Shown here piece after piece: positions 21,501-54,895 of a stretch of DNA of 64,000 bases (the stretch's first letter is position 1; the number at the start of each line of letters is the position of its first letter). A model generated the notes under the pieces. That model saw only the letters and a list, made by a program, of their open reading frames with translations, did no database searches and was not told where the DNA came from. The position numbers and the translations under genes were made by a program. The stretch spans positions 62,001-126,000 of the forward strand of contig JBDRRP010000115.1 in NCBI GenBank assembly GCA_043825735.1, written 5' to 3'. The stretch comes from Pseudomonadota bacterium (lineage in GTDB: Bacteria > Desulfobacterota > Desulfobacteria > Desulfobacterales > JBDRRP01).

Positions 21501-24500
21501 GCCCGTCGTTGTTGTCCCGCAGGTAGGCGCACTTCATGGTCATGTCTAGGGCCCGCTTGCTGCTGGGGGCAGAGGGGAGATAGGCGATCTGCGATGTCTG
21601 CTCACCAGCTTCATAGCTATTTTTGAACCCGTGAGCCTCATCAAAGATGATCGAAGTGAACCCCATGTCCTCAAAATAGGGAAGCTCGCCCTTTTTGGCC
21701 GTGCCCTCATCCGAGTACTTGCCCTCGATGCGCGCCTTGGCCTTGTCATCGTCGTAGGAGACTTTGCGCTCCTCGGCCTCGCCGTCTTTCCCGGCCGCGC
21801 CGGCGCTAAGGGCCGCAGCGTTTTTGTCCGAGATGAGGTGCCGCTCAACCATTTTGGCAGCGTACCCCGCCTTGGTATCGGGGCGCATGGGGATCGATCC
21901 AAACTTTTCCTGGGTCATCACGACCAGGCTTTTGGACGTGGCGGGAATCTCCCACATTTTTTCCCAGATGTCCTCCTTCGACTTCCGGGACATGAGCACG
22001 GGTTGCATCACCAATTCGCCGGTGATCTTGTTGCGCTTTGGCTCGCCCTTCTCGTTCAGGACCTGCTCCATGACAAGGGTCCCGTCCTTGTTCAGCTTGG
22101 GCTCGACTCCGACGAAAAGCACGTCGCTCATATCGGCGATCAGGTCGTGACACTCCTGGTACCAGTTGGAAAGGACAGAATTGGGTACCACGATACAGTC
22201 TTTTTTGGTCCGGCCCATCTGCTTGTTGTAGAGGTGCAGTCCAATGGCAACCATCGTCTTGCCCAGTCCGACATCCAGGCCCGCTATACCGCGGCCCTCT
22301 TCGGACAGCCGGCGGATTGTCTGGCTCTGGAACCCGTGAGGCCGCTTGTTGCCGCTCATCCCCTCGATTTCCAGAGGCTCAAGCTCATAGTCGTGGGCCA
22401 CGAAGGCGTTGAATTTGCGGTTATAGATGGCCGCCACCCGGTCCATGTCCGGATGCTGCTGCATCCAGGCGTTGAACCCTTCGGTGATGTTTTTCACCTC
22501 CTGCTTGTAGGCCTCGATGCGTTCCTGGGCGTCCTCGCCGCTCGATGTCACCCGGCCGCCGTTGAGATACTTGTCAAACTGCCGCGCGAACCCGGCCTTG
22601 TCAGGGACACCGATAAACTTGCCGAATGGGGCGTCCGGATCCTCGACAAATTTTGAAACAAACGTGACCTTGCCACTGACCGGATCCTCCCTCGGCTCCT
22701 GCTCGAACCGGCCGTATTGGAGGTTCGGGTACCCGTGCTCACGCAGGTAGTCGATCAGGTATTGTTTCGGGAACCATTTTTCCTGAAGGCCTATATAAAT
22801 GTTTTCCGGCAGCGTGATTTTCACGCGCCGGTTGATGGCATCGATCTGCGCCCCATATTTGGCGATGATCCGCTCGTCCGTCTCATCGGCCATGGCGGCG
22901 GTCATTGCCGCGACCTTTGGATACACATCGCCCGAGGTGTACCGGCCCATGGGCTGAATGAAACCGTCGGGCGTCAGGGCGATATGCTCGACGCTGGCAA
23001 GGTCCCCCAGTGATTCGAGTTTCATACCCCCCGCATAGAGTTGTTTCACGTCCTCCAACTCGATGTTCTGGATGCCCTCCCTGATGAACAGGTGCTCGAC
23101 GATGGACTGGATATTGGACGGGTCGAACTGGATCTGCCCGCTGTCCTGGACGCCGGACAGGAGGGCGGAGAAAGTGCCCTTTTCGTCCACCGCGTTCATG
23201 AACAGGCCAAAAGCCCGCGATGATTCGCCGGTGACCTGGATGCGGTTGCCCTTCGGATGCCCGAACCGCTCGACCTCTGTAACGACCAGGGCCTGCAACC
23301 GCTCGCGCTCCGCATCGTCCGGGTTTGCCTGGAGGCGCCCCAGAAGCCCGCCGATGATCGTGCCCCGGAACGCCTGCTCCCGGAACTTGTCCGAGGGCTG
23401 GCTCATCGCGAATTCCACCGCGTCTTTGTGGAGCGGGGAGAGAAGCTCTGGCCACGACTTGTAGACCGCGAACAGGTTGTCGGCGCTCATCGCCAGGGGG
23501 CCGCCCGGGCTCGAAAGCACGGCCCTCAGCTCTGATAGAGTGGATGCACCATAGCGCCCTTTGTCCAGGGCCATGTCGCCGGGTTTGGTCTCGATGATCG
23601 GGACCCACTGGCCGTCCCGCATCTCATGCTGGCGCCCATTGATGGTCTTGCGGTCACCCTCGATGTAACTTTTGGTCTCGGCCGGTGCGCTTTCGAGCAT
23701 GTCCCAGTCGATCCGGGATTCGAACCGCGCGGCCAGCTTTTGGCGGATCACAACCGCGTCGATATCGCCGTCCACCACCTCCCGGGACCACCGCTCGCCC
23801 TCGACCTTGGGGACCCATTTGCCCTGGATGAACCGCTTGCCCTCACCGAGCCAGTAGAGGCCTTGAGTAAACTCATCCCAGACCGCGCGGGCGGCCTTCA
23901 GGGTCTCGAAGGGAATGTCGTCGATCCGGTCCAGCAATTCCCGCGGGTGCTTCTTGAACACCACGATATCGACCACAGTATCGGTGCCCTGGGTCTTGAA
24001 GGTTTTACTGGGCAGCTTATGGGCGCCCAGGAATTCAGCCTTTTTGCTCAACTGGATGCGGAACTCCTCCCAGCGAGCCCCCTTCGCGCCGACAATGTTG
24101 GTCGGCACCACCAGGCAACAAAGCCCGCCGGGCCGGCATTTATCCAGGGCGCGGAGGAGGAAATACCGCTCGATTCGCTTCTCGGATTTGTAGGCCGGGT
24201 CGTCGTGCATCGCGGCCCCGCGGGCGTCGCCGAACGGCACGTTGCCGGTCACGGCGTCGAAACTGTCGTCCGGGGTCGATGCCACCAGGCGCTCGAATGA
24301 TCCGGTCTGGATCCCGTCCTCTGGGTTGAGGAGGGATGCGATCTTCGAACCTACCGGGTCGATATCGGTCCCGGTGACGATCACGCCCTTGGGTTTGGTG
24401 GCCGGGAAGACTCCGGCGCCGACGCATGGGTCCAAAACATTACCTGCCGTGAACCCGTTGATGGCCATGGCGTCCCACATGCCCTGGGCCACACCGGTCG

Positions 24501-24840
24501 GGGTATAATACTCAAACTGACTGTTCTCGGTCAGTCCGCCGCGGCCCGAATACTGTTCCAGGATCTGGCGGTCCTCATCGGTCATGTCCTCGGGGTCCTG
24601 GACTCGCGACAGGATATCCCTGGCCATCGCGTTGATGTTTTCCCGGGCCTTAAGGCCTCGGACCTTGAGGCCGAAATCGGATCTCGTGTCTTTGTAGTCG
24701 CCCGGGGTGATGGCTGGCTCACGGACCAGGAAGACATCCCTGAACACGGCCTCTATCTCGCTGAAGGCCGTGGCCGAACGGATGGCAGCAATGGCGTCGG
24801 CCGCCGGGGAGTTGGCGCGTTCCACGATGAGGACGGTCAT
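18550..24840 (-). CDS. darB: DarB-like N6-adenine methyltransferase / SNF2 helicase fusion
   Basis: VLDPCVGAGVF, GNVPFG; GLDVGLGKT, DEAH, TATPVTNS, QRNGRGVRQGN; 2096 aa in P1-like context. Confidence 0.88.
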   Translation of the reverse strand: MTVLIVERANSPAADAIAAIRSATAFSEIEAVFRDVFLVREPAITPGDYKDTRSDFGLKVRGLKARENINAMARDILSRVQDPEDMTDEDRQILEQYSGRGGLTENSQFEYYTPTGVAQGMWDAMAINGFTAGNVLDPCVGAGVFPATKPKGVIVTGTDIDPVGSKIASLLNPEDGIQTGSFERLVASTPDDSFDAVTGNVPFGDARGAAMHDDPAYKSEKRIERYFLLRALDKCRPGGLCCLVVPTNIVGAKGARWEEFRIQLSKKAEFLGAHKLPSKTFKTQGTDTVVDIVVFKKHPRELLDRIDDIPFETLKAARAVWDEFTQGLYWLGEGKRFIQGKWVPKVEGERWSREVVDGDIDAVVIRQKLAARFESRIDWDMLESAPAETKSYIEGDRKTINGRQHEMRDGQWVPIIETKPGDMALDKGRYGASTLSELRAVLSSPGGPLAMSADNLFAVYKSWPELLSPLHKDAVEFAMSQPSDKFREQAFRGTIIGGLLGRLQANPDDAERERLQALVVTEVERFGHPKGNRIQVTGESSRAFGLFMNAVDEKGTFSALLSGVQDSGQIQFDPSNIQSIVEHLFIREGIQNIELEDVKQLYAGGMKLESLGDLASVEHIALTPDGFIQPMGRYTSGDVYPKVAAMTAAMADETDERIIAKYGAQIDAINRRVKITLPENIYIGLQEKWFPKQYLIDYLREHGYPNLQYGRFEQEPREDPVSGKVTFVSKFVEDPDAPFGKFIGVPDKAGFARQFDKYLNGGRVTSSGEDAQERIEAYKQEVKNITEGFNAWMQQHPDMDRVAAIYNRKFNAFVAHDYELEPLEIEGMSGNKRPHGFQSQTIRRLSEEGRGIAGLDVGLGKTMVAIGLHLYNKQMGRTKKDCIVVPNSVLSNWYQECHDLIADMSDVLFVGVEPKLNKDGTLVMEQVLNEKGEPKRNKITGELVMQPVLMSRKSKEDIWEKMWEIPATSKSLVVMTQEKFGSIPMRPDTKAGYAAKMVERHLISDKNAAALSAGAAGKDGEAEERKVSYDDDKAKARIEGKYSDEGTAKKGELPYFEDMGFTSIIFDEAHGFKNSYEAGEQTSQIAYLPSAPSSKRALDMTMKCAYLRDNNDGRGVYPMTATPVTNSPFEVYNMLSYVAPIEEFERFGVYTVDDFVRVFGKIETVDKVMVSGDVKSKDGLTGFRNLDGLRNLFHKYTVLKTAEDVGLELPPHDELHEDVDLTEEQSNLYVSLREDAKAASVPGSKVSMFSVIRKMDRVTMDTDLYKRQMTFVFKAQDRAKVEALASELPATVDGYEEDENGKQIKVKVPCEPKFKTDGDSFIMVVPEAAEDIIATKIKRHGLDENDITHPMAPKYAKLVENIRKHLEAHGKQIVFTEEKSQHRKIKRLLSHHIPLSRDMIAIINADEAAGDKIQQISDQYNSGKVKIVIANKKAEVGVNLQKGTTAIHHLTLPWTPASIQQRNGRGVRQGNTAAHIQIYYYMGKGSFDMYRLDLLKRKSGWMHELLTGEATEAENANALGADDMLDLLADDPEEAKRRRMGRLAKQKADRDERERKRLVNMLQQLSNVAEALAGLEDAKEKRKEKLDEKIPKLQKQIDELKSAGAKMDPGEAKTAMAERLTRKKRELSLAEGDLKSLDEVFARKRADLETKKKQSQSILKLKAGKGELPFDAALVDNPQNAVAGLDGTLYAVGETYEARDKDGDLLGIFKIASVHADPKAVSFEEVVSHGYYSMRGDTWVKGAGGNDIRANLLSKLPDLVKVAYSEAELALKKLLSKRHTYLNLMEGGIDKETFEAHAAEIKMDGDGLLRTDTGHAWLRIYDAAQLIFPEPGSEVFRKALAQTYLAAAREKRSYVDYSLKSCMEKVFGSDWEGAAAEYGKKATETEIRAFYADYTKTWIDENIRGGSNDPDYMQLRDYRSKLYSDVRLAAKSLGDNTDEIMRVIVTCYDAAKDELDKKVIALVEAQSKAEDEARAERERQENERLKADPNYKEVPEDARAAFAQLGIEVKINRTNTVLPGRRTGRYKKYRDVEIPAFKKWFFQDNHGKSGVLFRVKEILKVRYGAQFFSGTTMQLDGAYWYVNSSYPLDEIYKVMT

Positions 24841-25433
24841 TGCTTGGCGCCTTTCGCGATTATTTCAGTCTTTTGGGCCGAGGACATGGACGATCCGAAA
24901 AAATACTGTACGACCGCGCCTACGGCAGCACCGAGGGTCCCAAACAGCGAACCGAGCAGCATCACGGCAGCTTGCGGGATATCGCTTGGGACTTTCCCGG
25001 CCGCAATCCCGGCCACCATAATGATGATCGTCAGGAAATAGCCGCCGACGAAGAGGTAAGCCAGGATATAGAGGTTCATATCCCGCTTGCCGGTGGCCTT
25101 TTCCACCTGGACTTGTCGGTTCCGGGCGTCCCCCACATCGGCCAGCGTCGCAGACTGGCTGGCCTCAATGTGCCGGTGGTCTTCTTTTTTGTTCTCCAAG
25201 GCCAGTTGGCCGAGCGTGATCCGCTCATTTGACTGGAGGGACTCCATGGCGAGGACCTGCTCCGGGCTCAAGGCCGTCACTTGCTGCCCGCCGTCGGTGG
25301 TCAGCTTGATGCCGGTTTTTTCCTCGATAAACTCGACCGCTTTTTCTCCCGCGCCGTTGACGGCATCCGACAACAGGCCGAGGCCCTGCTTTGCAAGCAT
25401 CCCCGCGATCGATGCGATGATAGCTGGAATCAT
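24837..25433 (-). CDS. Putative holin-like membrane protein
   Basis: Two C-terminal TM segments ending in YFFGSS; coupled to the putative lysin. Confidence 0.65.
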   Translation of the reverse strand: MIPAIIASIAGMLAKQGLGLLSDAVNGAGEKAVEFIEEKTGIKLTTDGGQQVTALSPEQVLAMESLQSNERITLGQLALENKKEDHRHIEASQSATLADVGDARNRQVQVEKATGKRDMNLYILAYLFVGGYFLTIIIMVAGIAAGKVPSDIPQAAVMLLGSLFGTLGAAVGAVVQYFFGSSMSSAQKTEIIAKGAKQ

Positions 25434-26020
25434 TTGCCCCCCAATTCTGCTTCGTCGAGCAGCGTGTAGGTGTAGGTGGATCCGAACCGCGCTCCGGATC
25501 TCGCGATCGCCATGAAGATTTCGAAATCGGACCAGCTTGCCAGCACCTGACAACCGGCCGACCATTTATCAACGAGGACCGATTCCCCCTGCCATGCCGC
25601 GCAGTGGATGTTGATTCCGAACCATCCCGTTTCGGATTTACCGCCCGCGTCGATCTTGTTGTTGCGGTCATCGTCTCGGAAGACGGTCAGCGGCGCGGCC
25701 TGGACCAGGGCGTCATATTTCCCCTGATGTTTTCCGATCCGAAATGCGCTGCGGTACTGGCCTGGGGCGAGAACGGCGGTACCGAGAGTTGACATGGGGT
25801 TTTGAAGCCAATGCGAGCCCGGGTCGGTGGTCGCGGGGAAGGCCCAGAAAAGCCAGCGGTTCTGGTGGCTGGCGAACACCGCCACCATGTCGTCGAACCG
25901 GTTGGCCTCACGATTGGGTGAACGGATGCCGACGATGTTCAAATCGTGACGCCCGCCGCGGAAAACCGTGTAGCCCTTGGCATCCATGGCGGTGACAATT
26001 TGATTCACGGATGGGGTCAT
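25430..26020 (-). CDS. Putative endolysin with an L,D-transpeptidase-like His/Cys motif
   Basis: GINIH...WSAGCQV; adjacent to the holin-like gene. Confidence 0.6.
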   Translation of the reverse strand: MTPSVNQIVTAMDAKGYTVFRGGRHDLNIVGIRSPNREANRFDDMVAVFASHQNRWLFWAFPATTDPGSHWLQNPMSTLGTAVLAPGQYRSAFRIGKHQGKYDALVQAAPLTVFRDDDRNNKIDAGGKSETGWFGINIHCAAWQGESVLVDKWSAGCQVLASWSDFEIFMAIARSGARFGSTYTYTLLDEAELGGK

Positions 26021-26031
26021 GGTGGCCTCGA

Positions 26032-26056
26032 TAAAGTTATAAAGAAAACTTTATAG
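26032..26056. promoter_or_regulatory. TAAAG-N3-TAAAG-N4-CTTTA operator-like motif
   Basis: Same architecture at 54866 and 59857; upstream of the lysin-darB-portal gene run. Confidence 0.65.
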
Positions 26057-26086
26057 TAAAACGTGCAATGATTCAATAGCGACTGT

Positions 26087-27922
26087 TTATGCGTTCCCGA
26101 CAGCCTCCCGGTAACTGGCCTCGGCCAACTCGATCGAGGGATAGATTGTCAGGCTCACCACCTCCCCGGAGTCGGCGTCATAGATCCGGACCGCGCCCTT
26201 GTCGCCTTCCAGCGCCTGGAACAACTCGTAGTCGACGCCTTCGATCCGCTCAACGGCCACCGTCCTGGACTCGCCGATCTGCCCGATTCGGTGGATCTCG
26301 CCTACCTGCTTTGGCGGCGCCGGCCCTGGTTCGTCATAAATGTTACCGCCGGCCGGGTGCAGGTTTTTGAAGCGGGTTTTGTCGGTGGGATCAACTGAAA
26401 CCGATTCCATCCCTGAAGGCTTACCAGTTTCGGTCAGCCTGGTCAGGGTGAGCATGAACCCGCTATCCCGGTCCAGGGCGTAGCGGTTGCCGTCATCGTC
26501 GGTGAGGATATCTCCCCTGGTCAGTTTCTGCCCGTTGTGGCGATTGGTGCCGGGGTCGTAGCGGAGCGGGGATCCTACTCCGCCATCGTCGGATATTGTC
26601 CCTCTGCCGGAATCAGAACCGGTTCCGGGGTTTTGACCGCTGGCTGCGCCTTCGGGTACGGCGCTGGGAATGGGATGATTTTCGACGGCACTGAGGAGCC
26701 CGTCAAGGTAGGTTTCGATGGATTTTCCTTCATCGTGGCTCTCATACTTGTAGGTTTCGATCAGGTCGCCGAGTTGGTCGGCGATGGTGGCCTTGACTGC
26801 CTCGATGGTTTCCCGGATGTTATCAAGGCCGGCAACTTTTTTCAAGGCGTTCGAGACTATCCCCGGCGTGGCAACCCTGTCTTCTATCGCAACGAGCAGT
26901 TCCTCGATCGCGCCGTCAGACACATAATCCTCATGCTCGATGGAGAGAATTGACCGGTATTTTTCTTCGATCCGCCGGTCAACCATGAACCCGGCACTCA
27001 CAAGTCCCTGCCGGACAAACTCGGCCTCGATCTCCTCAACAGTCTTCGCATTGCGGATCCGCTTCCTCATCGACCACCCAGGATCCTGGTCGGCCGAGAA
27101 CAACGGATCGTCGGTATGGGCAACGAGTCGCGCCGTGGCCGGTTTCGAGCCGGGTGCATCGCCAGGCCCGGCCTCACTCCACCCGTTCTTTTTGGCGTAC
27201 TCGGCCAGTGCGGCCTCAGCGGCTGCCCGGTCCGTGAAAAACCCGCCTGCCCCGCCAGCGACGTCCCCGGTGCCAGACGCGGCCCGGATCTTGATCCGAT
27301 TCCCGCGGTCATAACCCTTCAGGTCGTTGTGCCGGTACCATGCGTAGTTTCCGGCAACCCCGGGGCCGACCATGACAAACTGCCCCTTGTCATCGACGTA
27401 GGCGGATTCACCAATGAGTTGGTGCCGTGTCATCCCCACCTCGACGAGCACCGCCTCAATGTCCTCGATGCCTCTGGCGGCCAGGACCTTTGTCTTCCAT
27501 GCCGGCCGCTCGCCGGCGTAGACCCGCTTGGCCTCGGTGTGCTCTGCCCACCACTTGGCGATGTAGTTTTCTTCCAACTGCTTTTTGATGGCAAGATCGG
27601 CCCTGCAAGCATCGATCGTGTACTTGGGCCGCGACAGTTCCTTGGCGAGTTGATCGTCATAAAAGAGGGCGTCCTTTTTTCGGACGCGGGCCTTGGCATT
27701 CCGGATCCGGTGCGCGAGCATTTTTTCCGCGGACTCAAAGCGCATCGGTTCTGGAACCCACCCGGTGTAAAGGGCTGTTTTGCCAAGTTCGTGATAAGCA
27801 CCAACGGCCGCCTCCACCTCTGGATCAGGGCGGTTGCCAAAGCGAGAGACCCCCCACTTCAGAACCTTTCTGCTGTCTGGCGTCCCCGATGTGTAGACGG
27901 TAAAAACCCTATGATCAGGCAT
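26087..27922 (-). CDS. Multi-domain (polyvalent-type) hypothetical protein
   Basis: 611 aa; short globular segments with G/P linkers; two copies of the DarB-N-like helix. Confidence 0.7.
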   Translation of the reverse strand: MPDHRVFTVYTSGTPDSRKVLKWGVSRFGNRPDPEVEAAVGAYHELGKTALYTGWVPEPMRFESAEKMLAHRIRNAKARVRKKDALFYDDQLAKELSRPKYTIDACRADLAIKKQLEENYIAKWWAEHTEAKRVYAGERPAWKTKVLAARGIEDIEAVLVEVGMTRHQLIGESAYVDDKGQFVMVGPGVAGNYAWYRHNDLKGYDRGNRIKIRAASGTGDVAGGAGGFFTDRAAAEAALAEYAKKNGWSEAGPGDAPGSKPATARLVAHTDDPLFSADQDPGWSMRKRIRNAKTVEEIEAEFVRQGLVSAGFMVDRRIEEKYRSILSIEHEDYVSDGAIEELLVAIEDRVATPGIVSNALKKVAGLDNIRETIEAVKATIADQLGDLIETYKYESHDEGKSIETYLDGLLSAVENHPIPSAVPEGAASGQNPGTGSDSGRGTISDDGGVGSPLRYDPGTNRHNGQKLTRGDILTDDDGNRYALDRDSGFMLTLTRLTETGKPSGMESVSVDPTDKTRFKNLHPAGGNIYDEPGPAPPKQVGEIHRIGQIGESRTVAVERIEGVDYELFQALEGDKGAVRIYDADSGEVVSLTIYPSIELAEASYREAVGNA

Positions 27923-30900
27923 AAGTCTCCCCCCCGATCAGCTTCTGATACAGCCCAACCCATGCCGACTCCCCGACGAACTGGAGCGGGATCTTTACAT
28001 GCTCTTCGGGGCCGGTAACCAGTTCCCGGAAATCCTCGACCCGCATCGTGGACACAGGCCCGAGAAACAGGGGCGAATCATACTGCTTGAGGTAGGCATC
28101 GATCGCGGCCCGGCGGTTCGGGAAGCCAATGAAAACCTTGTCCTCATCATAAAATTCAGGACAGGCGCAATCGTGGACGTGCTCACCGCACTGGGGGCAG
28201 GTCTCGGAACCCCAGGCCTTTACCTTGGCGATGTCGTGTTGCTTGACCACGTAAACATGCTGGGCGCCCCGGTCCGGCCCGACATAGACATCGATGCCTT
28301 CGTCGTCCTCGCCCTTTGTCCGGCGGATGTAGCCGTAATCGAAGTGCATCTTGGTTTTCCACTCATGCCCGTCCGGATCCGTGCCCTTTCGAACCGACCC
28401 GGCCTTATTTTCGACCGATATCGGCATGCCTTGGAACTGGTAGCGGTCCTGAAGGGTGAAGCGTTTTTTCTTAAACTCAACCGCGGCTGTCTTCCCGGCA
28501 GACTCGAAAAGCCCCTTCTGCGGCTCGCTCTCCTGGATCGCGCGCGCCAATAATTCTGATATCGTCGGCTCTGGCCGGTTTTCCTCCTGGATTTTCGATT
28601 GCTGCAGGTCCATAAAAAACGCCCGCAGTATCCCGGCCATCCGGCCGAAAACTGCACCCATGCGGGTCTGGCGGCGAATATTGGCATCAATGTACCGAGC
28701 GATCGGCTTTGCGTCCTCGGACACGGACTCGAACAGGCGTCCCTGGGCGATGACCTCATCGATCTGTTGCGCATCTGAGCGGGACCGCCTCACCAGGTTC
28801 ACGGCGGCCACCAGGGCCGCGGTGAGTTTGTCTACGGCCGTCTTCGCGGGGGGCAGGACCTTCAGCTTGGCGAAGTCCTTGGCGCCGATCGTCAGCGCGG
28901 CCAGGACGTTTTTCAGGTCCGGGTTTGCCTCCTCGGCCACCAGCGCGAGCAGGTTCGCGTCACCGTAGGCGCGGTGGAATATCGCGGCCCTAGCCCGGTC
29001 CGCGAGTTGGCGCGTCGCCTGGCCCGAGGCCGTCGTCAGGCCGGTGGCCTCCTGTGCGCCCAGCATACCGACAAACTTTTCCATGAAGGCGCGATTGCCG
29101 GCACTGAGCAGGTCGCCGTCATCGGTGGGCCGGAGAGCGTCCAGGGCGGCGTCGGGCAGGCGCCGGGCGTCCATCTGGGCAAGCTCCGCCGGGCTCATGG
29201 TGCCCATGTCCGTGACGTTGGACTTTTCGGCCACGTCGGTCCTCGAGATTTCGGTCCGCCGGATCCGAACCAGGACCGGCCGGGTGAAGCCTTCCATGGC
29301 GGCTTTATCGATGCCGAACTTGGCCGCGTTGGCTCCCAGCCAGGCCCGATATTGCGGGGCATCATCGCGCGCGTAGCGCTTCCGTAACGCGATGGTCCGC
29401 CCGTTGCCGGACTCAACCACCAGGTCAGGGCCGACAATCGGGGACCCGGTGGAGGTCTGCAAGGATCCGCCCATCCGGTCCGGGTTGATCTTGGTGGCGA
29501 TCTGCTCGACTTGGAGTTGCATCGCATCCCGGGTGCGGTCCCGCGGTTGGAGTTCGGCCGGGAACTCCTCATTTACTGCCATGCTTTCGGTGTGAGATGT
29601 CACCATGTCGCCGGCATCAACCACTGCATACTGGAGGTGAAGCATCCGGTCATCGCTCAGGTAGGAGCGGGTCGGCCGGCCGGTCACCACTTTCGCTTTG
29701 ATCTTCTGCCCGTTTCTGGTAATATTCTCCGCATCAAAAGGAGGTGGCGGAATGTCACTGAGTGCCAATTTCAGGTTTGCGGAAAAAGAGGATGTGCCCT
29801 TTGCAATCGAACGGTCCTGCGGCAAATTGTTCCGGATGGACGGCAGGTCGATGGAGAAGTGGGTGGAGATCACCGACCCGGACAGCTTCGCCAGAATCAG
29901 GTCCAATGTATCCGAGGTCTCGGAATCCGAGGCGATGCTGCTGGCCGATGAACTGGAAGAAGACATCGCGGCCTTGCGGTAATATTTCACGCTCAACTTC
30001 CGGAGCGTCTCAGAATACCCCATCGCCATATAGGCCAAATCGCCATTTTTCTCCGTGTCTTTGGCGATAGAGTCGATCTGGCGTTTCACCTCGTAGATCT
30101 TGTGCCCCAGCCCCTTTTCTTTGGCGGTTAGAATAGCTTCGGTGTTGAGCTGCAGCTCGCACAGGTGCCCCCCGACGCTGGCGGCGAAGAGAACATCCAT
30201 GTAGCCGTCATCTGTCGGTTTCTCGAATCTGTTCTTCGCCTTGTAGACCGCCGGGTCGGCCACGATCATGCGGTAGGCCGCCGCCACCTGCTCGACCGTA
30301 TCGAAGATGATCATCCCGCCCACGATATCGGTGAGCCGGGCCGCAACCCCGCCGTAGTCGTTGGCCACCTTTTCGCCGGCCCGTTTTTTCCCCTTGAGCC
30401 CTGGTCTCAGCATCAGCTTTCCGCCGGTGCGTTTCGCGTAGGACTCTGCCCACTCCCGGAATGCCGGTTGTGCCTTCTCGGCCTGCTCGTAAACCGCATC
30501 CAATGATTTTTGGGCCGCGACCTGCTGCTTGAGGCTTCTTTTGATTTCGACTACGGCCTCGGTCTCCCCCAGATCCATCAAGGCTCGCAGGGTTGTGTTG
30601 CCGTCCAGCACCTTGAACTTGCCGTTGCCCATTTCGAAGACAGAGATAGGCTTGCGCTTCTCGCCCATCCCATCTTTAGCCGCGGCCATGCGCCCATGCG
30701 CCGTCTTGAGCCGCTCCGGGTCCGCGGCCTCACGGGGCACCAGGTCAGACAGCTTCATGACCACCGACCGGAAGGTGTCCTTGAAATAGGGCGAGTTGTG
30801 GCTCGGCGGCGCTCCGAATACCTTTCGGAAAATCCCCGAAATGTCGTCCATGTCGTCTGCCAGGGCCAGGTCGCTTCGGAAGTCGTAGCCTCCGAGAGCC

Positions 30901-31574
30901 GCATCCTCCATGATGCCCATATCACGCACGACCGGTACCGCCAGGTCGTCATAGAGTTTGACCATGCCTGGATCCTTTTCATTTGTGATTTCGAGGTCCC
31001 CGTGGCCGAGACCTTTCAGCCATGCCAGGACCCGAGGGATCTGCTCCGGTTCGGCGGCCCGGGCGGTGAAGATTTTCACCGTGTCGCCGTCTGCCAGGTG
31101 CTGGCGCAGGCGGGCGAGCATTGATTCAACCGGCGGGCCGATCTCTCCGGCACCGGCGGTCTGGGCCAGGGTGCCGTCCAGGTCGAACCCGACCCACGGC
31201 GCCCAGGCCGACTCGGCAACCATGCCCACCGGATCCTCGCCCCCGCCGTCGTCCAGCATTTCGGATGGGACAAAGCCCTGGACCTCGAAGTCGGTCAGGC
31301 TGTCATCGGCCCGGGCCAGAAGGGCGGAATAGATGTCCACAGGGCGGGCCAGGTCCAAAGAAACGGCGGTACCCCGCAGGCCACGGCCGTGGTATCGGAA
31401 GTAGTCCTGCACCAGTCGGCCGGCCCCGGGGCTCCCAAGGTCATCGACAGTCACCGCGGCCGGCAGGTCCCACTCGGTCGGTTCGATCCGGATCTGAGCG
31501 AATCCGGCGGCAGTGGTGATGCCGAAAAAGTATTCTGAGGCCGGGTAGACCGGCAAAGCGTCGTCTGACATCAC
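27915..31574 (-). CDS. Polyvalent protein: HAD, ParB-like, RelA/SpoT-like, DdrB-type ParB and InPase-like domains
   Basis: FDLDGTL/IFTAR/YDD; VLDGNT; GLK...EK, LTDIV, GYMD, ELQ, HKIYE; LQPRDR/ESGNGR; ISVENKAGSVR/DYGYIRRT/DEDKV. Confidence 0.82.
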   Translation of the reverse strand: MMSDDALPVYPASEYFFGITTAAGFAQIRIEPTEWDLPAAVTVDDLGSPGAGRLVQDYFRYHGRGLRGTAVSLDLARPVDIYSALLARADDSLTDFEVQGFVPSEMLDDGGGEDPVGMVAESAWAPWVGFDLDGTLAQTAGAGEIGPPVESMLARLRQHLADGDTVKIFTARAAEPEQIPRVLAWLKGLGHGDLEITNEKDPGMVKLYDDLAVPVVRDMGIMEDAALGGYDFRSDLALADDMDDISGIFRKVFGAPPSHNSPYFKDTFRSVVMKLSDLVPREAADPERLKTAHGRMAAAKDGMGEKRKPISVFEMGNGKFKVLDGNTTLRALMDLGETEAVVEIKRSLKQQVAAQKSLDAVYEQAEKAQPAFREWAESYAKRTGGKLMLRPGLKGKKRAGEKVANDYGGVAARLTDIVGGMIIFDTVEQVAAAYRMIVADPAVYKAKNRFEKPTDDGYMDVLFAASVGGHLCELQLNTEAILTAKEKGLGHKIYEVKRQIDSIAKDTEKNGDLAYMAMGYSETLRKLSVKYYRKAAMSSSSSSASSIASDSETSDTLDLILAKLSGSVISTHFSIDLPSIRNNLPQDRSIAKGTSSFSANLKLALSDIPPPPFDAENITRNGQKIKAKVVTGRPTRSYLSDDRMLHLQYAVVDAGDMVTSHTESMAVNEEFPAELQPRDRTRDAMQLQVEQIATKINPDRMGGSLQTSTGSPIVGPDLVVESGNGRTIALRKRYARDDAPQYRAWLGANAAKFGIDKAAMEGFTRPVLVRIRRTEISRTDVAEKSNVTDMGTMSPAELAQMDARRLPDAALDALRPTDDGDLLSAGNRAFMEKFVGMLGAQEATGLTTASGQATRQLADRARAAIFHRAYGDANLLALVAEEANPDLKNVLAALTIGAKDFAKLKVLPPAKTAVDKLTAALVAAVNLVRRSRSDAQQIDEVIAQGRLFESVSEDAKPIARYIDANIRRQTRMGAVFGRMAGILRAFFMDLQQSKIQEENRPEPTISELLARAIQESEPQKGLFESAGKTAAVEFKKKRFTLQDRYQFQGMPISVENKAGSVRKGTDPDGHEWKTKMHFDYGYIRRTKGEDDEGIDVYVGPDRGAQHVYVVKQHDIAKVKAWGSETCPQCGEHVHDCACPEFYDEDKVFIGFPNRRAAIDAYLKQYDSPLFLGPVSTMRVEDFRELVTGPEEHVKIPLQFVGESAWVGLYQKLIGGETYA
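29698..29745 (+). promoter_or_regulatory. Internal sigma70-like promoter and RBS for the nested antisense gene
   Basis: TTGATC, 16 bp spacer, TAATAT with extended TG; then AAAGGAGGT. Confidence 0.6.
29752..29982 (+). CDS. 76-aa acidic protein fully nested antisense within the polyvalent gene
   Basis: AGGAGGT six bases upstream of the ATG; natural-looking sequence, while the host frame reads as a Ser-rich linker here. Confidence 0.7.
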   Translation: MSLSANFRFAEKEDVPFAIERSCGKLFRMDGRSMEKWVEITDPDSFARIRSNVSEVSESEAMLLADELEEDIAALR

Positions 31575-31891
31575 CTATCCCTTACCTTGACCCGCATTTC
31601 GACTTCGTACTTGTTGGCGTCTGTTGTCACGCACCGAAAATCAATTTTATACGGTGATGCTGCCTCGGATCCGCCCCTGCAACGGATCGTCAGGGTTGAG
31701 ACCCCGATGGACAGCGTGTCCTGATCGAGAAAGGTGTCGCTTACGTCATTGCCGGCGTTGTCCATTGCTGTGATATGGTTGCCCTCTGTGCCGGTCTCTC
31801 CATCATCGAGGGTTTCCCCAGTGGCAAGTTCTGCCGCAAAGTCGCCGGCCACAAAAAACGCCTCCCATGGTTGCTTTTCTATCGAAACCAT
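31571..31891 (-). CDS. Small beta-rich virion accessory/fibre adaptor-like protein
   Basis: GGAGG RBS; KQPWE...DF start; alternating beta-strand pattern. Confidence 0.55.
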   Translation of the reverse strand: MVSIEKQPWEAFFVAGDFAAELATGETLDDGETGTEGNHITAMDNAGNDVSDTFLDQDTLSIGVSTLTIRCRGGSEAASPYKIDFRCVTTDANKYEVEMRVKVRDR

Positions 31892-32051
31892 TTCACCTCC
31901 GGGCAGCGCGGATTCTTAGCGCGATATATGCTATTTTTCTTCTAAAGCGAGCCCTAACCGTTTCATCTGTGCGAGCGACCCCCACCAACTCATCGCCAAA
32001 AGTCATCGGGAATTTCAACGGAAAAATAGATGAGTTCAAATCGCACCCCCA

Positions 32052-32804
32052 TCAATACGTGAACAATGAAAATGCCGTGGCATAATACACATCGCCATCG
32101 TAGTCGCCACCGTAAAGAGTGAAATCGTTTATCCCCTGAAGCTCTATATTGATCGGCGCCCACGCATCGGCGACGGTTAGTGGATATGAGTCAAGGACGT
32201 TGTTTAAATAGTCTTCAATCGCACCCACCCCTGTCGATGTGGGCACAGATATGAACGGCGCATTCTCAACCGGAGTTGCCGCCGGGCGGTACATCCAGAA
32301 CGTGAGGCGAGCCATCCTATTGGCTTCAGTTTTGTTAGTATAATTGTTTAGGGGTCTGATCCCAGCATAGGCGCCGCCGACATTTGAAATCCTTGCCACA
32401 TTTACAGCCGGAGGATTACCAATGCCGAAACTGCTATAACTCCCAACCACGACAGTATCGGCCCCATCTATGCCCCACTTTTCGAGAGTGCCGGTTTCAA
32501 ATGATCCATTTGAAACATAGCCAGAACCAAAAAACACTGGCGACCTTGCGCCGATATACGCCCACCCTCCAGATTGCGAATACAGGAACTCGCCAGCCTG
32601 CAAAAGAGCATCTCTCATGGGCACGATAATGTTTGCGCCAGCCGGATCAAACACAACAGCGTTTCCAGGCAAAGAATTGAATTTAAAGCGCACCCTATGT
32701 CCATCGGGGAACCACCCAGCCGGGTGAATATTGGCAATACTCCCACCGGCGCAAGTCATGACAAACTCGTTCCCATCTTGGTGCCTAAAGTAATGATCAC
32801 TCAT
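32052..32804 (-). CDS. Putative carbohydrate-binding virion protein
   Basis: NGSFETG...W motif typical of CBM4/9-like jelly rolls. Confidence 0.5.
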   Translation of the reverse strand: MSDHYFRHQDGNEFVMTCAGGSIANIHPAGWFPDGHRVRFKFNSLPGNAVVFDPAGANIIVPMRDALLQAGEFLYSQSGGWAYIGARSPVFFGSGYVSNGSFETGTLEKWGIDGADTVVVGSYSSFGIGNPPAVNVARISNVGGAYAGIRPLNNYTNKTEANRMARLTFWMYRPAATPVENAPFISVPTSTGVGAIEDYLNNVLDSYPLTVADAWAPINIELQGINDFTLYGGDYDGDVYYATAFSLFTY

Positions 32805-32807
32805 GCC

Positions 32808-33407
32808 TTACCCCCATGCACCAGAGCCGGTTTTCACCCACGCTGATCGCAAGAATGTGAATTCACCCCACTGTCCAGGTCCAATCTCGTCGCCTGTCGG
32901 GGAGAATTCAATCATCCCTCCGTATGCAGTGGTCATTTTTTCAATCGTCCCGAAATTTAGAGTTGCACCGGGGCTTTCATTGTTTGCGGTGAGTGCTAAG
33001 TCAAAGGGACTTTCGCCGTGGACACTGATTGCCTCAAAATAGAGGCGATTTTCCAAGAAATATGCCTGGACGCCGGGCAGTGATGCGACAATATCGGCTA
33101 TCGTGTCTTTCCATTTTCGCACCGGAGGCGTTGCAGTGATGGTCACACTTGTACCAACCATTGCCCCCATCGGAGTGACGCCAGAAATCGTAATGGTGTC
33201 GCCAATCATCCCGCCGCCAACCGTAATGTCGCTTTGCTCATTAATGCCGTATCCAAGAGAAAAAACAACTCCAGTCCTGAAAACCACGCACTCACTATTG
33301 AACACTTTTACCGTATCGCCCGGCAAAAACGAACCGCTCGGGGAAAGCCCTCTATCTGTTCCCATCGGATGTAAAAACAGTGTAGTTTGGTCCCTTGTGA
33401 AGTCCAT
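32808..33407 (-). CDS. Hypothetical beta-rich protein
   Basis: G/T/V-rich ORF tightly packed in the operon. Confidence 0.6.
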   Translation of the reverse strand: MDFTRDQTTLFLHPMGTDRGLSPSGSFLPGDTVKVFNSECVVFRTGVVFSLGYGINEQSDITVGGGMIGDTITISGVTPMGAMVGTSVTITATPPVRKWKDTIADIVASLPGVQAYFLENRLYFEAISVHGESPFDLALTANNESPGATLNFGTIEKMTTAYGGMIEFSPTGDEIGPGQWGEFTFLRSAWVKTGSGAWG

Positions 33408-34594
33408 TATACGATTGCTCCGATGGTTATGGTTTTTTGCTGCGGGACGACAACATTTGAAAATGGAAGAAGCGATGGAATAACCACGTCACCATAATTT
33501 CTTCCAATGAAAACCGAGCCTGTCGTGTCTTTCCCGATTATCGGCGTTGTGCAGTTTAGAAAATTGTTCTCGGCAATAACGGCATGCGACCCAGCGCCGG
33601 GGTTGACGGATATAATCATAGAGCCGCCATTGCCATTTCTAAATTCATTGCCCTCTATGCGAGCCATGAAGGGCCTCGTATCGCCTGGATTTACCGAAAT
33701 CCCCGAATAGCCAATCAGACTATTGAAATCGACAATGTTGTCTCGGAAAATAAGCGATCCCTGACTCGCCAAAATAATGCCGCCATACCAGTCGATAAAG
33801 TGACATCCGATGATCTCGGCATCGTCCTCCTGGAGCGCCGCCGCAAGAATAAGCATCGGTTGCCCCTGCCCTGCCCATGCGGCCCCTTCGGTTTTAAATA
33901 CGCAATCGTGAATCTTGTTCCTAAATGTGCCAGTACATGAGTTGATCGCACCATCGAAGTTATCGATAAATACGTTGCGAAAGCACTTATAATCCTTCCC
34001 GGTTGTCGGCTCCCATGCCCCATTTCCGCCGCTCGCCTTGATGATACTGTCAACTGTAACGTGATCCTCGCATTGAATAATTCCAACAGCGTTTCCATGC
34101 CACCCGTGGATGTCGCCACCCACAACGCTGGAGTGCCTCACTCGATAGAGATATACCGCGCACCCGGCAGTCGGGAACGATCCATTTCCTTCCGGCTTAG
34201 AGTCACCAACCCAGTCATTTGCCCCCGGCCTTGTCGTCCACGAGCCGTCCATTTCGCCGCCGAGAATATGGATATGCTCGTTGCCAGTCACCCTATCGGC
34301 GTTCTGGAATAAGTTGTTCGGAACATCGGGAGTTTGCGTGTCAACGATGAACTTTGCTGCGCGGGCGTCAATGACCGTATAGCTTGGAATGTCGATCTCT
34401 GCCTGCGGCTCATGGACCCCTGAAATAACGATCAGGCGAGGCGGGTCAGTGGCATTGATGGCGGCCTGAATGTCCTGCCCAGGTCCAACATGGGTGATGT
34501 GAGCAGTATTCCAGAGCGCCGCCACCATCGAGTTGAATTCTGCCGGGGTCAACTGGTCCCCGATGGCCTTTGTTGGAATATTAAACGATGGCAT
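33407..34594 (-). CDS. Right-handed beta-helix (pectin lyase-like) protein, possible depolymerase
   Basis: DIQAAIN cap; repeated I.GN.F, I.EN.F and FRDN.V rungs. Confidence 0.7.
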   Translation of the reverse strand: MPSFNIPTKAIGDQLTPAEFNSMVAALWNTAHITHVGPGQDIQAAINATDPPRLIVISGVHEPQAEIDIPSYTVIDARAAKFIVDTQTPDVPNNLFQNADRVTGNEHIHILGGEMDGSWTTRPGANDWVGDSKPEGNGSFPTAGCAVYLYRVRHSSVVGGDIHGWHGNAVGIIQCEDHVTVDSIIKASGGNGAWEPTTGKDYKCFRNVFIDNFDGAINSCTGTFRNKIHDCVFKTEGAAWAGQGQPMLILAAALQEDDAEIIGCHFIDWYGGIILASQGSLIFRDNIVDFNSLIGYSGISVNPGDTRPFMARIEGNEFRNGNGGSMIISVNPGAGSHAVIAENNFLNCTTPIIGKDTTGSVFIGRNYGDVVIPSLLPFSNVVVPQQKTITIGAIV

Positions 34595-34626
34595 CTTGCG
34601 GCCTCAAAATAAGGTTGGACCCGTTC

Positions 34627-36456
34627 TCAGGTGTTGATCATAGGGATGCTGATATCTGGTATTTTCCACTTCGTTTTGTCAGTGATAAGCGGGCTCGGAA
34701 TGTGATTTTCTTTAATACTCCTGTCGATGTGGTAGGACATATTTCTGGCCCACTCGCGCCCGCCCATCTGTTCGGCCATGATATAGAGATACATGAACAT
34801 CCGCGCGGTCCGGCCGGACTTGAAATATCCAAGGACCGTTTGCTCGCCAGGCCCAGTTTTCAGCATCGCCACATGCTGGTTTTTCCGCCACCCGGATGTG
34901 ATCACATATTCGGATCCCTGGATCCTGGCCTCGATGTCTCTGCTTTTCTTTTCCAGTTCCTTGTAAAACGCCTTTCCTGCCTCCTCCACGGTCCGCTTCT
35001 CAGCCGTGACCGCGTTGTCAGATTCTATCGCCGTGCGCTCAAGCTCTCCCATGGGCGTCCGCATCACCCCGACCATGAGTTGAAACATTTCCGGGTCCCG
35101 GTCCATCAACTCCACACACCCGCTGGGGTGCGCAAACTGCTGCATCCCCATGGACAGGATCTCGGTGTAGCCATCCCGGTAAACCTTGCCGACGTAGGCG
35201 TCGAAAAACTTGTCCTCGTAGGCGATTTCGTCAGATTTAAAGAGTTTGTTTTTTTTGATCCGACGGAGCGTTTTGGGAGTGGCACCGCTTGACTTGCGGC
35301 CGGTCCGGATGTCCAGGAAATCGTTAGCCATTGCTTTGATCCGCTGGTGGCGTTCGAGCAGATGGCCCATCTCATGCCACAGGGTCACTTTATTGAAGGT
35401 CCCATCCATGCTGATCGTGGCCTCGACAATAGCAGCACTCGCCCGCCTCTTCCCCTTGGTCTCGATCGTCACCCGGTTCGCCCGGCCGCCGGTCAGCCGG
35501 TAGAACTCCGCCATGTCCTTTCGAACCTGCTCCTCGGTGTAGCCAATTTTGCGCAGGCGCCGCTTTGCCCCGTCGGTGATGGTCTGACTGCCGGCCCAGT
35601 CGTCGGCCGCCTCCTGCGTGATCTCAGACGTTTCCAGGGCGTGATCCAGCACCCGCCTGCGGAGGTCGCCTTCGGCGGACGTTCGTTCGACATGCAGTTT
35701 CCCCAGTTCGGCCTCGATGTCCTTTGTGCGCTCCCAGTGCTCGGAGTTGGCCGCCCGCCGCATCAGGAGCACTTCATTCGTAATGGCGCTGATCTTTTTT
35801 TTGATCGGCGACACAACTTGGTTGTATTCCGCCGCAATCCTTGCCTGTTCCTCACCGTATGCGTCGCGTGGAAGCTCACCGCGTGCGATTTTCAGGTTCA
35901 GGTCGGTCATGCCTGCGATATATTCGTCGTGAGCCTTTCGGAGCGCATCCTCCGCCGCGAAAAGACCCGCTCGCTCCTTATACTCGTCGATTTCTCGGCC
36001 CTTGGTGGCGGCCAGCAGTTTCGATGATGCCTCGATGATTTTGGCCAGTTTGTAGATTTTGCCGACGATTTCGGCCAGCGCCGCGTTCTGACTGTGCACC
36101 GCCTCGGGTAGCGCGCCTGCAGCGAGATATGTCTCCCTGGCAATCTGGCCAACGGGCCGGTCTGGCTTGAGGGCATCGATATCGGCCAGAAATGCGTCAT
36201 AGTCGGCGCCGATCATCTCCATGTCGTCCCGGTAATGGCGCACGTTAAGGAATATGTGCGCCCCCCACTCGGCCCGGTCTATCGGGTTGACAGCCGCCTT
36301 GGCATGGCGGACCAGTGTCAGGGCTTTTTCGGCCCTGGCAACCCGATCTTTCCAGTTGTCGACAGAGAAATAGAACGTGGAGGCGACCACGGCCGCCAGG
36401 TCGTCAAAGGTCATCGCTGCGGTAATGGCCGCAGCGATATGTTCAGGTACCGCCAT
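34627..36456 (-). CDS. Zincin-like metallopeptidase-domain protein of the Dar locus
   Basis: LWHEMGHLLE (HExxH) with downstream YTEILSMG; helical N-terminal region. Confidence 0.75.
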   Translation of the reverse strand: MAVPEHIAAAITAAMTFDDLAAVVASTFYFSVDNWKDRVARAEKALTLVRHAKAAVNPIDRAEWGAHIFLNVRHYRDDMEMIGADYDAFLADIDALKPDRPVGQIARETYLAAGALPEAVHSQNAALAEIVGKIYKLAKIIEASSKLLAATKGREIDEYKERAGLFAAEDALRKAHDEYIAGMTDLNLKIARGELPRDAYGEEQARIAAEYNQVVSPIKKKISAITNEVLLMRRAANSEHWERTKDIEAELGKLHVERTSAEGDLRRRVLDHALETSEITQEAADDWAGSQTITDGAKRRLRKIGYTEEQVRKDMAEFYRLTGGRANRVTIETKGKRRASAAIVEATISMDGTFNKVTLWHEMGHLLERHQRIKAMANDFLDIRTGRKSSGATPKTLRRIKKNKLFKSDEIAYEDKFFDAYVGKVYRDGYTEILSMGMQQFAHPSGCVELMDRDPEMFQLMVGVMRTPMGELERTAIESDNAVTAEKRTVEEAGKAFYKELEKKSRDIEARIQGSEYVITSGWRKNQHVAMLKTGPGEQTVLGYFKSGRTARMFMYLYIMAEQMGGREWARNMSYHIDRSIKENHIPSPLITDKTKWKIPDISIPMINT

Positions 36457-36791
36457 CAGGCGGCCTTGTCCTTGTTGACCTCGATGTAGCGGATCGTCGG
36501 CTCTTTGACCGGCTCAATGTCTTGGATCTCGGCCACGATTTCCTTGAGGATGGCCAGGAACCGCTCCGGTTCCTCACCGTTGAACTTGCCAGCGATCAGG
36601 TCGGCCAGTTTCTGGTTCTCGGCGGCCTTGTCCGGGCTCTGGTCGATGGTCGCGTTGAGTTTGGCCAGGGCGTCGGCGATTTCCTTTTGGACCCGACGCT
36701 TTTCTGAAAAGGACAGCCCGGTGTCCAGCCCGGCCAGGCCGTCCTTGACGATCTTCTGCAGTTTGCGCTTTTCGGAAAAGGACAGCATCAC
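36456..36791 (-). CDS. DdrA-like small protein
   Basis: Position after darA and size; internal LSFSEKR duplication. Confidence 0.55.
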   Translation of the reverse strand: MMLSFSEKRKLQKIVKDGLAGLDTGLSFSEKRRVQKEIADALAKLNATIDQSPDKAAENQKLADLIAGKFNGEEPERFLAILKEIVAEIQDIEPVKEPTIRYIEVNKDKAA

Positions 36792-39700: not shown

Positions 39701-39886
39701 CATTTCGACCGATCCCGGGTTGAAGTGGTCGTCCACCTCCTGAAAGGCAGCAGACTCTAACAGTAGTGCGCCCTGGTCGGACGATAAGCCATAATAGATG
39801 TCGTCCAACTCCCGATGGGTGAACGGCGCGGCAAAGGGGTCACTTCCGACAATGAGAATTTTCATACCTTCGGCCAGTGGGTTCAT
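36788..39886 (-). CDS. darA: DarA-like protein with an expanded central region
   Basis: SDGQVVSIVFHSP...FRWLLNKRDIT N-domain, coiled coil, LLNQVADHYTEIL C-terminus; follows hdf. Confidence 0.8.
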   Translation of the reverse strand: MNPLAEGMKILIVGSDPFAAPFTHRELDDIYYGLSSDQGALLLESAAFQEVDDHFNPGSVEMVLEAIRVQRFAQAESKMKALVRVLNRHSKDNITALDPVIGPPRKSGLFATVTVQLPMSDGQVVSIVFHSPSGDDRKILPDDTIIAFRWLLNKRDITHAVSPERGQDVSLDKIGTRVMQIVAKNSEAFQRAQAGIKAQREELATVEQGIADAEGRNQAAATQLETTNYDAGLAADEIGLVSARLEKVRQENADLEAQIEALRNKKQERSERDRKPDADPNEGLNGYIAFYKGKRIEVFAKTSFEAQQKAAATFGAKKSYDVTVELAQKAEPAPEPPNKVGDSEIDSFEAIVAIGERPDLPPGNIVFNAPRPLAGHKDWQGDFRHGIYYAAVDPNGERADWMVEQNRDLDGWIVIYLSREEYLSRARSWAGRAYPDMNLTEFSEDDIIQSYGDHLEKLKTYGAIMDALAKDAGEAEPTQEPEPEKAEVGILPPAEQTDGNPAKRAAKILHGQGLATEVMQVGFQKKLDMGDGHELWIQTNKNQDDVLIRFDHYVDQTIDGDMAFVASTTTGMLTLSSVGFVAQSGQYMRRTKIGRAEKSMANTLSKSLIDRKFDSAAGPTVLEKIAPSMLPEGWTITEEQADSISYEKEYSVRNGVTRSYGITTAPTADNSKTVMTTIARNFEFGKEPDTSGATFDHISTVRIVLERMKAVDAFVAAESAPAIVRPVEIPESELPEDWIQGWTASSNPENAKTYDGPAGIKVRVSSMGDDGKLRVTQMDTDGRVTQWEDIADPAEANEKALSYMRQPVAAPGDEPDGKFSPGDTVYLYWEATGKDEPVNFRGPVGDDQAVVVKDGKQLTVKYSDLKAEPAPAPEPDESMNTFEVGGIKFTAIRKETPRKHWVLRIDETGEEFGPGTGGISNESRPKMQADLEYAFKRTGNDENEWRRQWGLEPKSEPTPEPEPVPEPTTSLAAVNTLNDILAGKYDGDSGQIDALLDQAAGEIEAAGRMEELEPLLNQVADHYTEILKKEAA

Positions 39887-40488: not shown

Positions 40489-40498
40489 GGGTATTCTC

Positions 40499-54846: not shown

Positions 54847-54865
54847 GATCTCTCCCTTTGGATTG

Positions 54866-54895
54866 TAAAGTAATAAAGTTATCTTTATAGCTTTC
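54866..54895. promoter_or_regulatory. TAAAG operator-like palindromic array upstream of the capsid gene
   Basis: TAAAGtaaTAAAGttatCTTTAtagCTTTC. Confidence 0.65.

Follow-up and report, generated by a model that had tools for sequence, protein, structure and literature searches.

Phage T4 directs proteins to its capsid by an N-terminal peptide, about ten residues long, which the head protease removes. In the internal protein IPIII this capsid-targeting sequence (CTS) is short and portable and brings unrelated proteins into the prohead, and a second signal lies in DarB of phage P1, whose residues 1–30 (N30) suffice to take an mCherry reporter into heads whereas residues 1–9 (N9) do not; according to the main text, deletion of residues 1–4 is tolerated and deletion of residues 16–30 or 21–30 blocks packaging (PMC9024508). 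In that text Gonzales et al. (2022) report no BLAST consensus among the Dar N-termini and name no receptor, and the nature of the 30-residue signal, the proteins that share it and its reader had been left open. Here we analyse a window of 64,000 nucleotides (G000:C115:62001-126000) that carries a P1-like prophage on its minus strand, from position 15469 onward, and we describe a helical hairpin, hereafter the tag, common to four proteins of its Dar locus. The tag is quite probably a head-loading signal of some kind. Our preferred reading, to which we give a probability of about 0.55, is that it tethers cargo in the prohead through the C-terminal domain of DdrA (DdrA-C), DdrA being held in turn by the C-terminal domain of DarA (DarA-C).

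One of the closest described systems is the Dar system of P1, in which the proteins lie inside the virion and protect DNA in cis; all six of its components have relatives in the window (PHROGs 1620, 1926, 1855 and 1629; a DarB of 36.8% identity; DdrB as two genes). As set out in the main text of Zheng et al. (2026; PMC12810830), the components are incorporated in the order Hdf/DarA, then DdrA, DdrB, DarB and Ulx, a stepwise order that fits the relay proposed here. DarA residues 70–382 and Hdf are placed there on the inner capsid wall; DarA residues 383–639 and the other Dar proteins are unresolved in the cryo-EM map, and the relay is absent from the published structure. The present locus differs in that DdrB is split into two tagged genes and a tagged 611-aa protein is added, and it is known from its genes alone. 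Tagged relatives also carry the domains of polyvalent proteins, for which packaging and processing into units have been proposed; passages in the main text of that proposal ascribe processing to a metallopeptidase domain and describe no shared loading hairpin (Iyer et al. 2017, PMC5512222).

Capsid-targeting signals are thus already known from T4 and P1 DarB, and what is added here is the DarA-DdrA-tag relay, with a consensus that reaches peptidases and polyvalent proteins, includes internal and C-terminal copies and comes with a candidate receptor. A literature search of open-access main texts gave no published account of the consensus or of DdrA as a receptor, and passages of PMC12707154 and PMC9144972 add nothing about the tag; the motif could be present in the alignments that accompany Iyer et al. 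(2017, PMC5512222) as supplementary data. The consensus and the named candidate receptor are directly testable in P1. In uncultured P1-like phages the tag can also serve to pick out, from sequence, candidates for counter-defence proteins delivered by the virion, orphans like the 611-aa protein among them. It is relevant, too, to the use of phages for delivering proteins into bacteria.

The hairpin and the proteins that carry it

The first-pass annotation of the window had pointed to one amphipathic helix motif in four Dar-locus proteins. Its five peptides were all located in the expected open reading frames (ORFs), all on the minus strand: DarB aa 19–37 (24730–24786), the peptidase aa 10–28 (36373–36429), a 1219-aa protein aa 235–253 (30816–30872) and the 611-aa protein aa 145–163 (27434–27490) and aa 288–306 (27005–27061). 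The tag itself has 22 residues and two helices, and its copies are as follows, with scores from a profile trained on DarB unless called reciprocal.

24727..24792, minus strand: tag of DarB, aa 17–38; 36.9 bits, rank 1; directly after a protease-like site, IVE-RA (24814–24828).
36370..36435, minus strand: tag at the N-terminus of the HExxH peptidase, aa 8–29; 16.5 bits, rank 5; reciprocal rank 3.
30813..30878, minus strand: internal tag of the 1219-aa protein, aa 233–254; 19.2 bits, rank 2; ten residues past the E of an IME-DA site (30900–30914).
27431..27496, minus strand: first tag of the 611-aa protein, aa 143–164; 11.9 bits, rank 16; reciprocal 14.4 bits, rank 9; followed by an IGE-SA site (27401–27415).
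27002..27067, minus strand: second tag of the 611-aa protein, aa 286–307; 11.8 bits, rank 17; reciprocal 24.6 bits, rank 2.

An AlphaFold model of DarB aa 7–46 has two helices around a short turn, with predicted local distance difference test scores (pLDDT) of 95 and 90 in the core blocks. The tag lies at the DarB N-terminus before the methyltransferase region, and is found at the same place in 94 homologues. To build the DarB-trained profile, relatives were taken as the best 120 of 501 matches, the region before the methyltransferase was cut from 117 of them (the DarB of the window and two truncated sequences being omitted) and N-termini of another type were dropped, leaving 22 columns from 94 N-termini. 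When this profile was run over the whole genome (1,933,256 positions in 6,066 ORFs), the five copies ranked 1, 2, 5, 16 and 17, and with the profile cut three columns leftward they ranked 1, 2, 5, 8 and 9. A reciprocal profile made from 40 non-DarB copies, free of the window and of its closest relative (L003), placed them at ranks 1, 2, 3, 4 and 9. Shuffled sequences reached the best score in 0 of 1000 trials for the 1219-aa protein, 0 of 1000 for the peptidase and 1 of 1000 for the 611-aa protein. The likeness of the motif copies therefore exceeds chance, as judged from these blind genome-wide ranks and shuffles on profiles that exclude the window copies. The two copies in the 611-aa protein are the weakest, several host proteins scoring equally or higher on the DarB-trained profile. 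In the proteins of the window the tag is covered by no Pfam family.

That the four proteins are otherwise unrelated, as had been stated, holds when they are compared pairwise (best BLASTP E value 0.33). Two of them, however, each match one half of P1 DdrB: the 609-aa peptidase its C-terminal half (E 1e-8) and the 1219-aa protein its N-terminal half (E 3e-73). P1 DdrB is represented here by two genes in reversed order (27915–31574 and 34627–36456), each with its own tag.

We then followed the tag across related loci. Of 78 loci collected, 72 had the N-terminal half of DarB and 49 were distinct at 90%, or 47 without P1 and D6. Searches of viral contigs with single sequences had found no locus with DarB and one with DarA, and an alignment was required. 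At a cut-off of 13 bits or more, the tag was present in 24 of the 44 peptidase/DdrB-like ORFs of the 47 loci, a set independent of the training set, compared with 2 of 596 unlabelled ORFs, bearing out the expected enrichment in Dar-locus proteins over others. It was also present in 28 of 52 DarB ORFs, which overlap with the training set, and in none of the DarA/Hdf (0/52), Ulx (0/33), DdrA (0/19) or portal/protease/capsid ORFs (0/59). A profile search of 1.84 billion proteins returned 48 matches, some from loci that had built the profile. Half of them (24/48) carry polyvalent-protein domains (ddrB-ParB, InPase, LPD1/3, PBECR1/3, ART-PolyVal, MuF-C); manual sorting of the rest gave nine matches to DarB, the peptidase or the 611-aa protein, six unlabelled proteins with typical tags and nine apparently unrelated repeat or host proteins. 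The tag may be N-terminal, internal (23 of 56 counted copies) or near the C-terminus, where P0131 and P0157 carry it. We conclude that the tag is real, conserved and specific, and that its function, judged from sequence, is a candidate one.

Within a single phage, the tags of different genes are closer to one another than tags taken from different phages are (centred score 6.4, permutation standard deviation 1.6, reached in 0 of 20,000 permutations; 24 loci), which fits a shared reader, and recent copying or shared ancestry as well. Tagged DarB relatives also occur at L013 and L016, in genome bins assigned to Bacteroidaceae and Bulleidia. They group with a Desulfovibrio locus, for which either a wider host range or mis-binning may account.

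In P1, where 32 ORFs at record positions 5–40 kb were scanned, the best four windows on the DarB-trained profile were DdrB aa 4, DarB aa 5, DdrB aa 616 and DdrB aa 559, so that P1 DdrB holds weak tag copies. The best DarB window, aa 5–26 (6.2 bits), occupies the same DarB position as the tag of the window and spans what N30 has and N9 lacks. Its match is positional, ahead of a conserved YG/FG segment, and DarB of D6 scores 9.4 bits. Shuffles reached the observed scores in 1 of 1000 trials for DarB 1–45, 2 for DdrB 1–45, 38 for the best DdrB window and 0 for the third-best DdrB window. The P1 deletions 1–4, 16–30 and 21–30 fit a motif at residues 5–26. Because the motif stands at the position of P1 N30 and is confined to DarB and peptidase/DdrB-like proteins, the first-pass proposal of a portable head-loading tag is supported, by inference, in its general part; the Ulx-assisted part of it is not favoured, for the reasons given below. 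Like the CTS of T4 IPIII, the tag would be a short portable prohead signal common to unrelated proteins.

DdrA as the candidate reader

The proteins concerned in reading the tag are encoded as follows.

36456..36791, minus strand: DdrA, the proposed adaptor (phrog_1855); N-terminal helical hairpin at about 36651–36779, flexible linker, three-helix C-domain at about 36474–36614.
36788..39886, minus strand: DarA (DarA_N); its C-terminal domain, at about 36788–36980, resembles DdrA-C.
39883..40536, minus strand: Hdf (phrog_1620).
18158..18553, minus strand: Ulx (phrog_1629), without tag; best tag-profile score −7.9 bits.

In its model, DdrA begins with a hairpin, from which a linker of low confidence leads to a C-domain of three helices; this domain resembles the last 60 residues of DarA (hhalign probability 78%, E 1.8e-5, 33 columns). 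Of the 49 distinct loci, 10 were set aside with DarA out of view, and in the remaining 39 we compared the presence of DdrA-C with that of the tag. A DarB tag, at a threshold of 4 bits, was present in all 28 loci with DdrA-C (24 at 12 bits or more, four at 4.5–9.4; in L003 and L057 it lies further upstream) and in none of the 11 loci without DdrA-C (best score 3.5 bits). Nine of these 11 loci keep Ulx and all of them keep DarA. When whole genomes were searched, DdrA-C was found in all 5 of the tagged genomes or records and in none of the 11 that lack the tag. Among 118 DarB N-termini, 93 had the tag only, 13 a DdrA-type hairpin only, two a whole DdrA before the tag, nine neither by threshold, and one both (P0119, kept in the training set). 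In a quick tree of 48 DarB segments (L067 omitted as too short; L062 and L076 on long end branches), the DdrA label needed 3 changes against a shuffled mean of 9.

The pair DdrA-C and DarB tag was fixed beforehand for co-folding, DdrA-C being the only receptor folded. It scored 0.50 compared with 0.20 for the best control, with a contact agreement between runs of at least 96% and a partner pLDDT of at least 70, and so reached a mark that 116 of 157 solved complexes also attained, as did 2 of 215 mismatches; it lends the DdrA-C/tag contact weak support. A sequence search of the Protein Data Bank (PDB) with DdrA gave generic helical matches only (best E 3e-4, to a coiled-coil stretch), and Foldseek with DdrA gave nothing at E 0.001 or better; neither search turned up a like complex to account for the co-fold score.

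The first-pass annotation had tied the tag to Ulx. This link is not favoured by our data, since Ulx is kept in nine of the 11 loci whose DarB has no tag and the tag tracks DdrA-C; the reader is likely to be DdrA, not Ulx.

Under our preferred reading, DarA-Hdf pairs stand on the inner capsid wall, as shown in P1, and the free three-helix domain at the C-terminus of DarA would bind the N-terminal hairpin of DdrA. The related C-terminal domain of DdrA would bind the tag, a contact at which the co-fold hints, and tag-bearing proteins (DarB, the peptidase, polyvalent proteins) would thereby be carried into the prohead. The prohead protease would cut at sites of the form hydrophobic-E-S/A-A, after the E and often just before a tag, splitting fused polyproteins into separately tethered pieces. 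In lineages without DdrA, a DdrA-type hairpin appears to be fused directly onto DarB.

A broader version, which we put forward tentatively and hold to be somewhat short of an even bet, is a two-step code of paralogous receptors in P1-like phages: DarA-C would read the DdrA-type hairpin and DdrA-C the cargo tag, with about one tag per protease-released piece, and the parts would have been rewired in nature (the hairpin on DarB where DdrA was lost, DdrA-DarB fusions, and the chain extenders of L012:7863-8195 and L052:7280-7795). If true, this code would explain the stepwise Dar assembly and the co-injection of a varied effector set.

In P0020, P0027 and L017:6885-8957 a whole DdrA is naturally fused to DarB or the peptidase, and the tag is still present behind DdrA-C. 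The L012 protein is small and combines a cargo tag (19.6 bits) with a DdrA-C (28 bits); the L052 protein, also small, combines a DdrA-like hairpin (seen by eye, 4.7 bits) with a DarA-C-like domain (30 bits). Either could act as a chain extender and increase the number of docking sites. Homology of the tag with the N-terminal hairpin of DdrA, or with DarA-C, was considered and rejected (hhalign probabilities 0.4% and 0.3%), although on the tag profile the last helices of DarA (36788–36890) reach 8.1 bits, with 14 of 1000 shuffles doing as well.

Several observations weigh against the relay. Twenty of the 44 peptidase/DdrB-like ORFs have no match at 13 bits. Six of the 11 genomes or records negative for DdrA-C are virus records, four of them only 56–78% complete. 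Only five of the 11 DdrA-less loci reach 8 bits on a DdrA-hairpin profile, the rest being similar by eye; the same profile misses hairpins seen by eye on four peptidase or peptidase-like ORFs of DdrA-less loci. Because well-supported branches of the DarB tree force only 1 change, the DdrA split is perhaps one event. Co-fold scores that reached the mark at 0.60 or under comprise only 18 solved complexes and both mismatches. The P1 copies score low (5–7 bits), and a profile of 13 divergent DarBs leaves P1 DarB aa 5–26 outside its top eight windows (44 of 1000 shuffles). Finally, in PMC9024508, the proteins given in Table 1 as helping DarB to load are Ulx and DdrB rather than DdrA, and the legend of Figure 3 gives the deletion of P1 DarB residues 11–30, most of the motif, as tolerated, which does not fit a motif at residues 5–26.

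A first alternative is that the tag does load heads but has a different reader, which might be Ulx, DarA-C itself, Hdf or the capsid scaffold region, with DdrA co-varying by lineage only. Besides the role given to Ulx in DarB localisation in Table 1 (PMC9024508), ulx directly follows darB in most loci, DarA-C resembles DdrA-C, and the single event just mentioned would suffice for the split. However, neither Ulx nor DarA explains the pattern, because Ulx is present in nine and DarA in all of the 11 tag-less loci, and DdrA-C co-folds with the tag above controls, if weakly. We regard another reader as unlikely.

Putative cleavage sites and the proposed fate of the hairpin

Sites of the head-protease type were compared with the tags by reference to the capsid protein and the protease that would cut it.

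53221..54897, minus strand: major capsid protein, with two VFE-SA sites (54679–54693 and 54493–54507) like the MLE-SV cut in P1.
15469..16467, minus strand: probable prohead protease, a relative of P1 Pro (phrog_1801, labelled 'tail fiber protein' as P1 pro also is); it adjoins the portal gene as P1 pro does.

P1 gp23 is cut between E120 and S121, according to the main text of PMC9024508, in the context MLE-SV. Sites similar to VFE-SA of the capsid protein are also present in Pro, DarA and the 1219-aa protein, and the product of 15469..16467, whose assignment is inferred, is the probable prohead protease that would cut such E-S/A sites. Two patterns were used, the first drawn after seeing the sequences and the second, [LF]ES[AV], fixed from capsid proteins alone. 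The first was found within 30 residues upstream of 14 of the 23 internal tags and of 12 of the 33 N-terminal ones, compared with 68 of 4,640 background windows. The second was found upstream of 4 of 23 internal tags, downstream of 0 of 23 and in 25 of 4,641 background windows (p 1e-5). P1 DdrB has GLFE-SV at aa 441, 18 residues before its weak copy at aa 459; P1 DarB has no protease-like site. Since the sites precede the tags, the tag would, if cleavage takes place, often become the kept N-terminus of the released piece.

The idea that internal copies mark fused cargo units is thus borne out in part, by the 14 of 23 internal tags that follow a head-protease-type site. The 611-aa protein departs from it: there is no site in the 25 residues before either copy, its first copy is followed by one and its second has none nearby; in addition, some relatives have their tags at the C-terminus. 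A removed N-terminal peptide of the T4 type was rejected, because sites of the protease type stand before the tag and because 23 of the 56 counted copies are internal. The difference from the T4 signal is that a folded hairpin stands here after a protease-type site, would be retained, and also occurs internally.

Retention bears on a second alternative, that the hairpin acts after loading, when it would stick cargo proteins to each other or to the DarA-DNA complex, either in aid of ejection or inside the host cell, with P1 targeting depending mainly on residues 6–10. That the tag stays on the product after a protease-like site and is not cut off, that several copies may occur per protein, some at C-termini, and that the 11–30 deletion is tolerated in P1 (PMC9024508) would all suit such a role. 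But retention fits tethering inside the head equally, and, as reported in the main text of the same study, N30 alone directs mCherry into heads and deleting residues 16–30 or 21–30 blocks packaging (PMC9024508). We consider a post-loading function quite improbable.

A third possibility, which we find very doubtful, is that the hairpin belongs to a processing signal, presenting the site to the prohead protease or to a DdrB-type peptidase, or is a folding cap spread by domain shuffling. The 14 of 23 internal copies with a site upstream agree with it, although under the pattern that was drawn after seeing the sequences. In contrast, a site of this kind precedes only 12 of the 33 N-terminal copies and is absent from P1 DarB; the capsid protein, Pro and DarA have sites with no tag after them; and the tie to DdrA-C would be left unexplained. 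Finally, the idea that the non-DarB copies are chance amphipathic helices has by now been refuted for the most part, with the least certainty for the first of the two copies in the 611-aa protein: some host proteins do score 12–18 bits (rank 3 is a 693-aa host protein outside the prophage, which by its start we take to be a glycyl-tRNA synthetase subunit) and nine of the 48 database matches look unrelated, but all four non-training copies are in the top 17 of 1.93 million positions and the contrast of 24 of 44 with 2 of 596 ORFs stands.

Gene content of the prophage and its surroundings

By Pfam and PHROGs, the Dar locus reads hdf, darA, ddrA, the 609-aa HExxH peptidase gene, three lower-GC genes with a 106-aa gene, the 1219-aa polyvalent gene, the 611-aa gene, two probable lysis genes, darB, ulx, portal and the probable prohead protease gene. 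The tagged proteins are encoded as follows.

34627..36456, minus strand: 609-aa HExxH metallopeptidase, with the HExxH motif at 35362–35376.
27915..31574, minus strand: 1219-aa polyvalent protein, with a HAD-like domain, tag, weak RelA/SpoT match, ddrB-ParB, InPase and five protease-like sites.
26087..27922, minus strand: 611-aa protein, tagged twice; its C-terminal 160 aa consist of two small modules common to other tagged proteins.
18550..24840, minus strand: DarB, methyltransferase-SNF2 helicase of 2096 aa (Pfam and PHROGs), 36.8% identical to P1 DarB.

In the 1219-aa protein the ddrB-ParB and InPase domains score above the Pfam cut-offs and RelA/SpoT below, and with several conflict domains in one chain encoded in a phage late region it has the make-up of a polyvalent protein. 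Its InPase domain consists of two Pfam stretches around a short cysteine-rich insert (window 28000–28450). The modules of the 611-aa protein, aa 451–529 and aa 534–611, match P0153, L037 and DarB of L003; a search for homologues of similar length, which leaves longer and shorter forms aside, returned only the protein itself.

Between the peptidase and the 1219-aa gene (31571–34594) lies an insert made up of a 106-aa gene with a weak likeness to Gp77 (E 0.002, which is below cut-off) and of three genes whose GC content is lower (about 0.49 compared with 0.60), one of the three with a beta-helix match. None of these genes carries a tag, and the insert may be an extra fibre or spike module. A defence-like cluster adjoins the prophage at 2983–14398, with an AAA ATPase with DUF3226, endonuclease I, an HNH protein, a weak Cap4-like nuclease beside a HerA helicase, an EcoRI-type methylase and a GmrSD-HNH protein. 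An adjacent ORF pair at 1728–2950, the first without a Pfam match, resembles by eye a split tyrosine integrase. Because these integrase-like ORFs adjoin host genes, the P1-like phage seems to be integrated rather than carried as a plasmid.

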